From assembly GCA_965200785.1 (NCBI GenBank), contig CBDAVA010000003.1:2594605-2658604 (forward strand): a stretch of DNA of 64,000 bases. The letters run 5' to 3'. Below, piece after piece: positions 61,519 through 64,000 of this stretch (within the stretch, counting starts at the first letter, position 1; each line of letters opens with the position of its first letter). The DNA comes from Alphaproteobacteria bacterium (GTDB lineage: Bacteria; Pseudomonadota; Alphaproteobacteria; Bin95). A program made the translations under genes and the position numbers. The notes beneath the pieces are model-generated. The model worked only from the letters and a program-made list of their open reading frames with translations, was not told where the DNA came from and made no database searches.

Positions 61519-61989
61519 TCAGCAGTCCGGCCTTGCGCCGGCGGCCATATCCGCCAGTGCAGACGGAGACATCATGGCAGCCGGCGTCCAGCGTAGCCGG
61601 CGCCGCGCAAGGCGTTCACCGCCGGTTTCATCGTCATAATGCGCCGGCACCGGTTCGGGAAACCCGTGCTGCGGCAGGTCGAGCGTATTGACGACAAGCG
61701 TCGCCAACAAACCGTCCGGCTCTTCCACCAGCGCGCACACATAGACGCCGCAAACCCGGCAGACGAGAAAATCGGTGATCCCCAAGCCAAACCGATAACG
61801 GCTGACATTGCGCTCATCAGCGACAGCTATCCCGATGCTGCCGTCAGGGTCGCTGGTCGCGCGAATGCCGTGCTTGCGGCAGAACGTGCATTGGCACGCC
61901 CGGACGGCCCATTCCGACACCGGCCTGGACGTGCGGTAGGCCACACGGATATTGCCGCAATGACAACCGCCGTCATAGGTGTCGGTCAT
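61519..61989 (-). CDS. GFA family (aldehyde-activating) Zn protein
   Basis: GGCHCG, CQCTFC, CRVCG. ATGA overlap with the upstream gene. Confidence 0.85.
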   Translation of the reverse strand: MTDTYDGGCHCGNIRVAYRTSRPVSEWAVRACQCTFCRKHGIRATSDPDGSIGIAVADERNVSRYRFGLGITDFLVCRVCGVYVCALVEEPDGLLATLVVNTLDLPQHGFPEPVPAHYDDETGGERLARRRLRWTPAAMMSPSALADMAAGARPDC

Positions 61990-63041
61990 GTGGTGTCCTT
62001 TCCGGCGTCGGGGCGTCCTGCCCCGCGGAGGATGGGCAGAACGCGGTCGGCAAGCAAGTCGATGCTCCGCATGACCAGGCGGTGGTCCATGCCGAGCCAC
62101 TGCAGGCGTGCGATGATACGGTTGCACCCGGTCCCCTCCGCCAGTTGCAGCAGTTCTTCGGCGACCTCCTCCGGCGCACCCATCACAATCCGTCCGGCCA
62201 GCAATTCGTCGAGATCGAGTCGGTCCTTGTCGGTCCCGACAATGTTCCTGAACAACCCCTGCTGGCCAAAGACGCGATAGCTCGCTTCCAGGAACGGCCC
62301 GACCTCGCGGACCGCCGTCTTCCGGTCGGGCGCAACGACGATATTGCGGAGCATCGGAAAGCGCGCCGGCGCAGGCTTGCCCAGCGCCTCCAGGGCGTCG
62401 AGGAAGCATTGCGCCTGCCGCCTGACAACATCGCCGACCAGATGCGACGAGGCGACCCAGCTGTCGCCCAGCCGGGTATCGGCAAGCCTGGCCGCGCGCT
62501 CGACCGCTGCTTCCACGCTGCCGCCGAACCACATCGGAGGCCGCGGACGGCGGGCCGGCTTCAGGGCGAGCGACAGACCGTCGGCGGTGAAATGCCGGCC
62601 GGCGAAGGACACCTTCTCTTCAGTGAACAGTCGGCGGACGAGATCGACGCCTTCCAGATAGCGGCCGATACGGCGGTTGAAGTCTATCCCCATTAGCTCG
62701 AATTCGTCCTGCTGCCAGCCGGGCGCCACGCCGAGCGTGAACCTGCCGCCGGAGACCGCATCAAGCAGCGCCGCCTGCTCGGCCACCTGCAACGGATGGT
62801 AGAGCGGCAGGATCATCATGCAGGTGGCAAGCTGCATTCCCCTTGCCTCGCCTGCGAGATGCAGCAGCGTTTCAAGCGGCGGGAACCACGCCGCAGCGCC
62901 GTAGGAGAGGTGATTGCCGATCGCCGCGCCTTCAAAACCGCCCTGACGCGCGAGGCGAAGCTGCTCGACATGCTCGGCCATCTTTTCGCCCATATGCGCA
63001 TCCGGGCGATGTTCGGCGCAGATAAAGAGATACAGGTCCAT
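61986..63041 (-). CDS. LLM class flavin-dependent oxidoreductase
   Basis: PLYHPLQVAEQAALLDAVSGGRF, PRPPMWFGG, AVERAAR, GAPEEV. Confidence 0.85.
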   Translation of the reverse strand: MDLYLFICAEHRPDAHMGEKMAEHVEQLRLARQGGFEGAAIGNHLSYGAAAWFPPLETLLHLAGEARGMQLATCMMILPLYHPLQVAEQAALLDAVSGGRFTLGVAPGWQQDEFELMGIDFNRRIGRYLEGVDLVRRLFTEEKVSFAGRHFTADGLSLALKPARRPRPPMWFGGSVEAAVERAARLADTRLGDSWVASSHLVGDVVRRQAQCFLDALEALGKPAPARFPMLRNIVVAPDRKTAVREVGPFLEASYRVFGQQGLFRNIVGTDKDRLDLDELLAGRIVMGAPEEVAEELLQLAEGTGCNRIIARLQWLGMDHRLVMRSIDLLADRVLPILRGAGRPDAGKDTT

Positions 63042-63103
63042 GGGCGGCAAGACTGGCCCAAAGCGCCGCCGAGCGCCATAGCCTCAGCAGCGTCTGGGGC
63101 CCA

Positions 63104-63562
63104 CTAAACGAAGGGAGCGTCTCCGTTTGGCATTCGCGTTCCTCTGGCAGAGTCAGCCAGGGGCTTGAGAGGCCCGGCCATCCGCTCCGAACGCCCCGGC
63201 GCCGGCTCGGACCCCCTGTTGCGGCCCCGGACGCCCTGTTGTCGCGCCGGACGCCCTACTGTCGCCTCCGATCCTTCCGCAGGGCCGAAACGGCGGAGGA
63301 CGGCCCCCGGCGCTCCGCTCTGCTCCGCCCGGGGTGACGACAAGGGAGGCGGCATAAGCGGCGCGGCACGGAGGCGCGGTCCGAAAAACCCGCCAGCACG
63401 GGCCTTCATTGCACACTGAGACACGACCGAAACGAAATCGGGCGCCTTGCGGCGCCCTTTGCGAGTGTAGGTTTTCCGGTTTCGGATTCGCTGCGGACGA
63501 AGGTTGCGCAACGTCCGGGCGACCGGGTTGCGCCGCTTTGGCGGCGGCTTTTGTCGAGACAT
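63104..63562 (-). CDS. Small basic ArfA-like protein (conserved part ~44 aa, 63562-63431; frame stays open through the repeat to 63104)
   Basis: AGGAGG upstream of ATG 63562. Sequence MSRQKPPPKRRNPVARTLRNLRPQRIRNRKTYTRKGRRKAPDF. Confidence 0.6.
   Translation of the reverse strand: MSRQKPPPKRRNPVARTLRNLRPQRIRNRKTYTRKGRRKAPDFVSVVSQCAMKARAGGFFGPRLRAAPLMPPPLSSPRAEQSGAPGAVLRRFGPAEGSEATVGRPARQQGVRGRNRGSEPAPGRSERMAGPLKPLADSARGTRMPNGDAPFV
63119..63428 (-). repeat. Composite structured intergenic repeat (copy 2), with three internal ~20-bp tandem units
   Basis: Reverse-complement homolog of 14538-14810. Tandem units at ~63209-63268: GGACCCCCTGTTGCGGCCCC / GGACGCCCTGTTGTCGCGCC / GGACGCCCTACTGTCGCCTC. 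Confidence 0.85.
63430..63457 (-). terminator. Terminator-like hairpin inside the ArfA-like ORF
   Basis: GGGCGCC-GCAA-GGCGCCC followed by GATTTCGTTT on the minus strand. The U-tract is imperfect. Confidence 0.55.
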
Positions 63563-63600
63563 GACGCCAGCCCTCCTGGCCGCCCGGCGTGATGGATATA

Positions 63601-63675
63601 TGGTGGGCGCGGCTGGGTTTGAACCAGCGACCCCTGCCGTGTGAAGACAGTGCTCTCCCGCTGAGCTACGCGCCC
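63601..63675 (-). tRNA. tRNA-Val (anticodon CAC)
   Basis: GGGCGCG acceptor stem, TAGCTCAGCGGGAGAGC D-arm, CTGTC-TTCACAC-GGCAG anticodon arm, GGTTCAAACC T-arm, encoded CCA. Confidence 0.97.
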
Positions 63676-63686
63676 GTGTCCCGGAC

Positions 63687-63715
63687 CGTCTAGGCTTGGC
63701 CCTCCCGGCTGTCAA
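63687..63715 (-). promoter_or_regulatory. sigma70 promoter of tRNA-Val
   Basis: TTGACA-N17-TAGACG ending 11 nt before the tRNA 5' end. Confidence 0.7.
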
Positions 63716-64000
63716 GCACTGCCCCATGGGTCATCCAGCTCGAGCACGGCATTATCGGCGCCGAGGGCGGGGGCGGGCGCCCGGACCGCCGGACGCCGGC
63801 CGTCGAAAGAAATCGGCAGCGCGATGGCCTGCATCCCTTCCCGGTCCGGCACATCCACAATCTGGTCGAGCGCCTGCACCTGCGGCTCCTGCAGCGCCTC
63901 GACCAGATTGTTGACCGGCGAGGCCGGCACGCCGGCGGCTTCAAACAGCTCCATCCACTCACGGACAGTGCCTTCGGCAAGAACCGCCTGAATGTCCCGG
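63712..64000 (-). CDS. C-terminal part of a CaiB/BaiF CoA transferase (runs off the window edge)
   Basis: WMELFEAAGVPASPVN...PQV...PAPALGADN, a typical family III C-terminus. Confidence 0.75.
   Translation of the reverse strand, partial: RDIQAVLAEGTVREWMELFEAAGVPASPVNNLVEALQEPQVQALDQIVDVPDREGMQAIALPISFDGRRPAVRAPAPALGADNAVLELDDPWGSA

Follow-up and report, generated by a model that had tools for sequence, protein, structure and literature searches.

A small gene behind tRNA-Val in an alphaproteobacterial genus encodes a probable divergent ArfA homolog with a conserved in-frame hairpin

We examined a 64,000-nucleotide stretch of DNA from an Alphaproteobacteria bacterium (NCBI GenBank assembly GCA_965200785.1, contig CBDAVA010000003.1, positions 2,594,605 to 2,658,604; hereafter the window), focusing on a small open reading frame (ORF) that starts at ATG 63562, directly behind a tRNA-Val gene. 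A sequence-only reading of the window had proposed that this ORF encodes an ArfA-like ribosome-rescue factor translated from an mRNA that ends before any stop codon. We found that the ORF is a real gene, that its product appears to be a divergent relative of ArfA (Pfam PF03889; YhdL in E. coli), and that a putative RNA hairpin inside the reading frame is conserved across the genus. The core features of the locus are as follows.

63431..63562, minus strand: conserved coding core of 44 codons, MSRQKPPPKRRNPVARTLRNLRPQRIRNRKTYTRKGRRKAPDFV, predicted to encode the ArfA-like peptide (identity within the genus; synonymous variation; family profiles that match ArfA)
63440..63457, minus strand: in-frame hairpin in codons 36-41 (GGG CGC CGC AAG GCG CCC), a perfect 7 G-C pairs around a GCAA loop, dG -15.8 kcal/mol
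63430..63439, minus strand: U-rich tract GAUUUCGUUU, covering codons D42, F43 and V44 and one further base, where a terminated transcript lacking a stop is predicted to end
63572..63577, minus strand: Shine-Dalgarno sequence AGGAGG, located from the sequence, 9 nt 5' of the ATG (63562-63560)
63601..63675, minus strand: tRNA-Val (anticodon CAC; ARAGORN; Rfam tRNA model, 64.6 bits), directly upstream of the small gene

All of the elements that had been described for the small gene sit on the minus strand and were confirmed, from the ribosome-binding site, the ATG and the 38-nt spacer (which runs from the CCA end of the tRNA-Val to the ATG and contains the AGGAGG) to the 7-bp GC stem, the GCAA loop and the U-rich tail in codons 36-41 onward. 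Residues 1-41 of the peptide include 17 lysines or arginines and no aspartate or glutamate, as had been stated. Read in the direction of the gene, the hairpin spans 63457-63440 and is followed by GATTTCGTTT. The first in-frame stop is a TAG at 63106-63104, giving 152 amino acids from ATG 63562, and the ORF lister placed the small ORF within a 207-amino-acid frame (63104-63727) that had been called spurious and did prove to be an artifact.

We assessed whether the small ORF behaves as a gene by means of its relatives. In a six-frame scan of 40 related genomes, 14 of the 16 genus members besides the window's own gave strong matches that contain no stops (E ≤ 1.1e-14; 75-84% identity), so that the gene is present in 15 of 17 genus genomes overall. 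No strong match was encountered in two genus genomes, whose assemblies are broken into 250 and 730 contigs, and outside the genus the same scan gave only chance-level matches. Among the 14 relatives the ORF is 50-58 amino acids long, a Shine-Dalgarno sequence (AGGA or GGGA) lies at a similar distance from the start, and conservation runs up to ...KGRRKAPDFV, followed by approximately 7 variable codons and a stop. Across the 15 genus sequences, synonymous variants were noted at 23 of 33 degenerate codons at positions 2-35 while the residues stayed fixed, which constitutes the signature of a translated gene. It was determined that the small ORF is a real gene under purifying selection.

The gene also belongs to a much wider set of sequences. 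The genus profile matched 31 small proteins among 5.8 billion (E ≤ 0.01), the more distant of which carry DUF7230. A family search of 1.84 billion representatives matched 1381 clusters (E ≤ 0.001), and the 150 listed are all 35-135 amino acids long. With the 31 proteins added to the profile, family members turned up in 30 of the 401 alphaproteobacterial genomes sampled, representing 24 of 307 genera. From these matches, the small gene is predicted to encode a very basic protein of approximately 44 amino acids in a large family that overlaps Pfam DUF7230 (PF23876). Of the 31 places recorded in the 401-genome scan, we dropped L070 (at a contig end, with a TGA inside), L074 and L079 (each with a TAG inside) and a second match in G398 that had no locus; L080 was also dropped, as was L078 (no Y.R motif) before the census of terminators described below. 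L060, with an ORF of 194 amino acids, was kept in that census and left out of alignment A3, and L040 lacks an ATG and was not included in the ArfA set A4.

Homology to ArfA was assessed with profiles of this family. Compared by hhalign with 28 canonical ArfA sequences, the 39-sequence family profile gave 83.9% (E 7.7e-6) and the 146-sequence profile 93.6% (E 2.1e-7 over 41 columns). The real score was 39.4, compared to 17.2-17.8 for a reversed ArfA alignment and a mean of 8.3 (maximum 14.1) for 60 column shuffles, and the 25 least ArfA-like members alone scored 23.1 against ArfA. A hmmsearch of 177,635 PDB sequences at E ≤ 10 matched ArfA chains only (6 of 6 matches), with a best E of 0.0015 for the 39-sequence and 4.4e-5 for the 146-sequence profile. 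The latter also recovered two canonical arfA loci in six-frame genome scans (E 8.6e-6 and 2e-5). One protein served as a stepping stone: the window peptide is 39% identical to P0071 (E 3e-6), and P0071 is 57% identical to an enterobacterial-type ArfA (E 2e-12), with a 3-residue gap at the GKG position as the sole gap.

At the level of residues, NPVARTL of the window peptide aligns with NAIEALL of ArfA, and within this segment N12 and A15 hardly vary across the family. The basic segment YTRKGRRK occupies residues 32-39; in it Y32 and R34, which pair with Y39 and R41 of ArfA, do not vary in either the 39- or the 146-sequence alignment. The sub-branch of the window lacks the two residues aligned to D22 and P23 of ArfA, and many family members have '..P.FR' here; the structural roles of the hydrophobic N-terminal strand of ArfA that contacts RF2 (release factor 2) and of Pro23 in its A-site mid-region are treated in the available part of PMC5378476.

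The family was further found to span two Pfam definitions. At E ≤ 0.01, 104 of its 146 members match DUF7230 and 11 match ArfA. L075 passes PF03889 (27.3 bits against a cut-off of 25.5), L058 reaches 24.3 bits on ArfA and also matches DUF7230, L064 is weak on both, and L067 passes DUF7230 with 39.2 bits; L058 and L075 carry a 3-residue GKG-like insertion exactly at the position of KGKGS in ArfA. The window peptide itself scored 14.4-14.7 bits (E 0.03-0.04) on DUF7230, below the 27-bit gathering threshold. This was the only Pfam family that it touched, all 15 genus members did so weakly (best E 0.0012), and the two have the pattern RNPVA...R-x-x-V...K-x-Y-x-R-K in common. The Pfam model is narrow, matching 1 of 301 sampled genomes of the phylum, and is of no use for mapping the distribution of the family; no mention of DUF7230 was found in the literature searched by full text, a search outside which most subscription journals lie. 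We conclude from the profile comparisons that the window protein is a putative divergent ArfA homolog, in a family that bridges PF03889 and PF23876, and that it is not a member of PF03889 as defined. That this is a genuine gene homologous to ArfA is held to be very probable.

It was also noted that several family proteins from different clusters, among them P0033, P0034, P0063 and P0163, possess a near-identical C-terminal read-through tail (...SAASR..MISMISAAAAGMLVPGP) past the basic core. This suggests that the ORFs run into a shared, conserved downstream sequence or repeat, and it is a further sign that annotated C-termini in the family are arbitrary.

The in-frame hairpin was present in 14 of the 15 genus loci, in 10 of which it was the strongest terminator-like site, and it was missing from one locus. 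Its nucleotides are nearly invariant in the genus; in one variant a G-U keeps the pairing, and two genomes have a mismatch. The sequence-only reading had considered that homologs might normally stop before the hairpin, and the stop was found 27-48 nt 3' of the stem in all 14 genus relatives. Over codons 36-44, synonymous variation occurred at 3 of 9 codons, and mean entropy was 0.15 compared to 0.52 upstream (one-sided Mann-Whitney test; p = 0.009, on related and non-independent sequences). The conserved codons are disfavored ones, given that GGG makes up 16% of Gly, GAT 28% of Asp and GTT 7% of Val codons in 16 long ORFs of the window; at the U-tract, GAT nevertheless accounts for 10 of 12 Asp codons and GTT for 14 of 14 Val codons in the genus. 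Unlike the hairpin and U-tract nucleotides, the residues past V44 are not conserved. Because the codons of the hairpin and U-tract are almost frozen and disfavored ones are kept, selection acts on the RNA element of the hairpin as well as on the protein. A stricter terminator scan gave 4 sites in 1.1 kb compared to 0.6 expected from shuffles.

The position of in-ORF terminators was determined with the same script on three sets of loci. Outside the genus, the strongest hairpin was distributed as follows.

28 canonical arfA loci: inside the ORF in 22, over the stop in 4, after the stop in 1, none in 1
23 distant alphaproteobacterial family loci: inside the ORF in 7, over the stop in 4 (weak), after the stop in 0, none in 12

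The 7 distant loci possess clear intrinsic terminators (A-tract, GC stem and U-tract; dG -12.5 to -24.6) located 25-436 nt before the stop, within ORF tails that are long and not conserved. In one group of canonical arfA genes the hairpin lies 9 nt past the Tyr codon and is followed by a weak UUCGCUUCUG-type tail, with the stop 16 nt later. The genus layout nearly equals that of this group, with the hairpin at +12 nt, GAUUUCGUU (63431-63439) and the stop 27-30 nt later. These layouts indicate that a putative non-stop arrangement is common in the family without being universal, and that the genus of the window has it in conserved form. As described in the available part of PMC8012679, the arfA stem-loop leads to premature termination or RNase III cleavage, transfer-messenger RNA (tmRNA) handles the resulting non-stop mRNA, and ArfA accumulates only if trans-translation fails.

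Two further features account for the long frame seen in the window.

63113..63429, no strand assigned: inserted copy of a dispersed repeat, approximately 310 nt (~317 nt), supplying 108 non-conserved read-through codons
63104..63112, minus strand: second TTCGTTT copy (63112-63106; target-site duplication), overlapping the displaced native stop TAG 63106-63104

A repeat insertion at 63428 had been suspected and was found to be real, with a duplication of TTCGTTT and at least 51 matches in the window's genome, this copy included (70-94% identity; conserved part 63119-63428; count based on 40 of 236 candidates scored). The insert is missing from all 14 genus relatives, in which synteny with a downstream monooxygenase gene is kept, and the window has approximately 320 extra bases between the small gene and that monooxygenase gene. 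The two TTCGTTT copies (63436-63430 and 63112-63106) are separated by exactly 324 nt, or 108 codons. In the downstream copy the frame runs TTC GTT TAG, and the sequence that follows matches the tail of P0013, the closest metagenomic relative; the pre-insertion ORF therefore ended in ...DFV-stop, at 44 amino acids. The TAG at 63104 is the native stop, pushed 324 nt away by the repeat insertion, and the 152-amino-acid frame is an artifact. The earlier statement that no stop occurs before 63104 holds for the sequence as it stands and not for the native gene, in which the TAG directly followed V44 until the repeat moved it. The coding core is intact despite this displacement, which would be harmless if the mRNA ends before the insert.

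The dispersed repeat resembles a miniature inverted-repeat transposable element (MITE) or a repetitive extragenic palindromic (REP) element, with a hairpin and U5 of its own (~63384-63404, minus strand) and internal direct repeats, and several of its copies occur in tandem clusters, such as G000:C3:1327767-1328815. Contig depth in run X8 rose to approximately 9255 over the repeat compared to approximately 31.6 in the flanks, with loose ends at 63119 and 63425-63429. The sequencing runs were available as Logan contigs, which show no transcript start, end, strand or level, and neither the depth figures nor uncovered bins (for example X8 63446-63586) were counted as evidence.

We assessed which rescue systems accompany the gene. 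The window's genome (100% complete) carries an alpha-type tmRNA and SmpB. It contains exactly two genes with an RF-1 domain, namely RF2 (with SPF) and RF1 (with PDT), of which the RF1 gene falls within the window, and no RF-1 gene of the size of ArfB was found in this genome. Across the 17 genus genomes, no RF-1-domain frame shorter than a full release factor was found, save for an RF2 of G002 that a contig break splits and an additional RF2-like copy in G007. The copy in G007 (G007:C3:5228617-5228946; a 363-amino-acid frame approximately 70% identical to RF2 of the window's genome) exists besides RF1 and RF2. Among the 401 genomes, approximately 123 had at least 3 RF-1 matches, a number used to stand in for the presence of ArfB, but among the 30 genomes with the family the figure was only 3 (odds ratio 0.23; Fisher exact test; p = 0.012); the tally was made by hand, may be off by a few and includes the unpublished G361 and G546, and the test overstates the difference as the genomes are related. 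A complex prediction that paired RF2 of the window's genome (13-row alignment) with residues 1-44 of the peptide (146-row alignment) gave 0.02 against a mark of 0.32 and was counted neither for nor against binding; the RF2 alignment (A6) left out 11 of 24 loci with a stop in the match as well as the truncated L102.

The surroundings of the gene were examined for its possible mode of transcription. The neighbors are the end of a CoA-transferase family III gene (63712-63999) and a luciferase-like monooxygenase gene (61986-63050), both on the minus strand, and Rfam recorded nothing over 62800-64000 except the tRNA. One further feature lies upstream of the tRNA.

63687..63715, minus strand: candidate promoter of the tRNA, and perhaps of the small gene too, predicted from the sequence as TTGACA (63715-63710), a 17-nt spacer and TAGACG (63692-63687)

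This candidate has a perfect TTGACA, lies approximately 11 nt 5' of the tRNA start and overlaps the end of the CoA-transferase gene. Its 'cctagac' stretch is kept in relatives with an intact tRNA; a consensus promoter scan returned 0 sites at 63687-63715, marking the element as weak. An intact tRNA-Val occupies the same position in 10 of the 14 genus relatives. Because the terminator scan found no terminator-like site between the tRNA-Val and the small ORF, co-transcription of the small gene from the tRNA promoter is plausible.

At L006, L007, L011 and L014, the 3' half of a tRNA-Val alone precedes the small ORF, with no intact tRNA within 1.5 kb. At L006, the one such locus that was checked, a phage-type integrase gene (PF00589; E 8e-15) adjoins the fragment. 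Because of the half-tRNA and the adjoining integrase gene in relatives, it appears that an integrative element attaches at the tRNA-Val, with the ArfA-like gene at the element's edge. Adjacency to a tRNA was rejected as a trait of the family as a whole, since no tRNA was found within 1.5 kb at 21 of the 23 other loci. In the remaining 2 of the 23 distant loci, a tRNA-Val (CAC, GAC) lies approximately 0.9-1.3 kb upstream on the same strand (L062:2925-2999 and L063:491-565), which may reflect an ancient linkage or chance.

Compared to known rescue factors, the window protein is most like ArfA. Both possess, in matching order and register, an N-x-x-x-A-L-type N-terminus, a (F/L)R-x-R-V middle and a basic tail of the form Y-x-R-K-G-(K/R); both have a hairpin and U-tract inside the ORF ahead of the stop, and both coexist with tmRNA-SmpB and RF2. 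They differ in that the N-terminus of the window protein is rich in Pro, Lys and Arg, in place of the MSRYQHTKG type of ArfA, and in that the window protein lacks the GKG of KGKGS and two residues of the mid-region. Its product would be approximately 44 amino acids long compared to 52-55 for mature ArfA, the latter as given in the available part of PMC6299226, and in the window protein's ORF the tail past the hairpin comprises just 7 codons and is not hydrophobic. The same source, in that part, reports that no residue of the ArfA tail is individually essential for activity.

Other factors share features of a different kind. ArfT of Francisella and BrfA of Bacillus subtilis are likewise short, release-factor-dependent rescue peptides with basic tails (PMC6299226 and PMC6881298, each in the part available), and BrfA is also produced from a non-stop mRNA according to the available part of PMC6881298. 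Neither appeared in any of our searches, with no dedicated comparison made, and they are regarded as analogs rather than demonstrated relatives. ArfB (YaeJ; RF-1 domain, PF00472) fills the same niche as a back-up to trans-translation and differs in having an unrelated fold with its own GGQ hydrolase. In a survey of 15,259 genomes, as given in the available part of PMC11633108, the 2,376 Alphaproteobacteria held 0 arfA and 2,022 arfB, making arfB the usual alphaproteobacterial back-up. Detection in that survey used nhmmer nucleotide profiles, according to the same part, and would miss the small gene because of such profiles and because the gene is so divergent. Caulobacter is described as lacking an arfA homolog in the available part of PMC4235212, and surveys, in the parts available, place ArfA only in Gammaproteobacteria, some Betaproteobacteria and a few Bacillus species. 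Our literature search on ArfA-like or divergent ArfA proteins found none on Alphaproteobacteria by title or abstract among the matches listed, with most subscription journals lying outside the search.

The release of ribosomes from non-stop mRNAs is held to be essential in bacteria. In the mechanism that we propose, the gene would be transcribed together with or just behind the tRNA-Val, and transcription would stop at the GC hairpin and U-tract inside the frame, leaving most of the mRNA without a stop codon. Ribosomes stalled at the 3' end would be rescued as long as tmRNA-SmpB is active, with the peptide being tagged and degraded; once trans-translation is saturated, the untagged peptide would accumulate. 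Termination at the hairpin, control by tmRNA, ribosome binding, recruitment of a release factor and co-transcription with the tRNA are in each case what we infer by homology.

Several observations weigh against this interpretation. The homology to ArfA emerges only via family profiles and intermediates; the similarity of the peptide alone is not significant. PF03889 gave no match at E ≤ 10 for the 44-, 57- or 152-amino-acid form (gathering threshold 25.5 bits), a six-frame scan of the window's genome for PF03889 yielded just an unrelated 11.2-bit match elsewhere, and no NCBIfam model matched the peptide. A hidden Markov model of the 28 canonical ArfA sequences gave the peptide 0.7 bits, a value that 379 of 2000 shuffles equaled or exceeded, and BLASTP against an enterobacterial-type ArfA returned E = 1.2. 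The alignment that the sequence-only reading had drawn was correct in placing the gap at GKG and is not significant as a direct alignment; the PF03889 check that it had suggested gave no match for the peptide itself, and the family profiles matched canonical ArfA. The hhalign result depends on the sequences included, falling to 40.5% (P 2.9e-4, same register) when the five most ArfA-like intermediates were removed and to 6.6-7.7% with the closest relatives only. The KGKGS motif (K34, G35, K36, G37 and S38), invariant in the 28 ArfA sequences, is absent here, with a 3-residue gap in the window protein and most of the family. A genus-only profile run against PDB found no ArfA, the tail of uS9 being the sole match at E 6.8. 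That match, which was not significant and not relied on, pairs peptide residues 16-44 with uS9 residues 100-128 (3j9w_AI and 9fy1_i; pattern RK.Y..KG.R.AP.F), and the resemblance may be purely compositional, between two basic tails that reach the decoding region.

Points of the same kind concern the transcript. Terminator-like sites were absent from the ORF and its end in 12 of the 23 distant homologs, and in 4 more the site was weak and overlapped the stop. In the window, the U-tract is weak and interrupted (5 U in 8) and the stem is just 7 bp. A looser scan recorded 389 terminator-like sites per 128 strand-kb of the GC-rich window, or approximately 3 per kb, and therefore the window hairpin alone is not beyond chance; the comparison across the genus raises it above chance. 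In three runs of one metatranscriptome study, single contigs take in the tRNA, the ORF and the hairpin without a break and continue beyond the hairpin, at the positions below.

X1 63294-63675, metatranscriptome contig bridging the hairpin
X2 63380-63650, metatranscriptome contig bridging the hairpin
X3 63274-63656, metatranscriptome contig bridging the hairpin

If these contigs derive from RNA, read-through transcripts past the hairpin exist; carry-over of DNA is possible. Lastly, 4 of the 14 relatives have just a 3' fragment of tRNA-Val 5' of the ORF, and therefore the gene there cannot depend on the tRNA promoter.

Three other explanations were weighed against this evidence. That the ORF is no gene, being a chance frame in a GC-rich tRNA-Val trailer that is conserved as an RNA element or as the place where an integrative element attaches, is extremely improbable. 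GC-rich genomes do yield long spurious ORFs, as the 207- and 152-amino-acid frames indeed are, and an integrase-bearing element uses the site in some relatives; however, the substitution pattern is that of a protein, a ribosome-binding site is present, and 21 of 23 homologous loci have no tRNA within 1.5 kb. The 1381 clusters of homologs and the 30 family-positive genomes among the 401 from Alphaproteobacteria, along with the synonymous pattern, led us to reject a chance ORF. It is rather unlikely that the gene product is an ordinary protein, small and basic (such as a DUF7230-type peptide that binds ribosomes or nucleic acids), made from a normal stop-bearing mRNA, with the hairpin as a terminator shared by the tRNA-Val and the small gene that overlaps the end of the coding sequence, and with a kinship to ArfA that is neither functional nor regulatory. 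This would fit the stops 27-48 nt past the stem in the 14 relatives, the pre-insertion TAG directly after the U-tract, the 12 of 23 distant homologs that are short ORFs with no in-ORF terminator, the weak terminator and high scan background, the RNA-library contigs that bridge the hairpin, the absence of KGKGS and the scores below the PF03889 and PF23876 cut-offs. A terminator 27-48 nt ahead of the stop, however, still leaves the stop off the transcript, and the nucleotides of the hairpin and U-tract are conserved where the residues past V44 are not. An ordinary protein would also leave aside that the profile matches go to ArfA only, that 7 distant homologs carry strong terminators deep in long non-conserved ORF tails, like arfA, and that ArfB was not found in the 17 genus genomes.

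A quite improbable alternative is an ArfA-derived rescue or ribosome-binding factor that acts differently, for instance by using RF1 as well as RF2 like ArfT or by sensing the mRNA channel with a shorter linker, with partial or no non-stop regulation. Its mid-region is 2 and its tail 3 residues shorter than those of ArfA, and the family is heterogeneous for in-ORF terminators; according to the available part of PMC6299226, ArfT has 40 amino acids, resembles ArfA only in a KGKGS-like patch and works with either RF1 or RF2, and single ArfA tail residues are non-essential. Against this, no observation here discriminates between release factors, and canonical arfA loci show the same arrangement of hairpin, U-tract and later stop. 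Taking these together, we lean, with some reserve, towards a divergent ArfA homolog that would work as a back-up rescue factor regulated via its non-stop mRNA.

The suggestion of an unrecognized alphaproteobacterial ArfA-like factor that lacks KGKGS and keeps its in-frame hairpin is supported by the family profiles and the conservation in the genus. What is new here, and upheld in its essentials, is a putative KGKGS-less ArfA variant in an alphaproteobacterial genus lacking ArfB, with a conserved in-frame terminator. Whether the KGKGS-less clade as a whole (at least 1381 clusters at 50% identity, most of those sampled falling under DUF7230) is the missing, non-stop-regulated back-up rescue factor of Alphaproteobacteria that lack ArfB is a question on which we are evenly divided. 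Such genes are overlooked by gene callers and by nucleotide-profile surveys because the annotated ORF end is arbitrary. If the proposal is true, the mobile repeat at the predicted mRNA 3' end would be a natural experiment indicating that the stop codon is not needed for function, and the family would supply natural KGKGS-less variants for dissecting how the tail senses an empty mRNA channel. The autoregulation of arfA through non-stop mRNA would be older and more widespread than thought, DUF7230 would gain a testable function, and part of the gap would be filled for lineages that have no known back-up to trans-translation.

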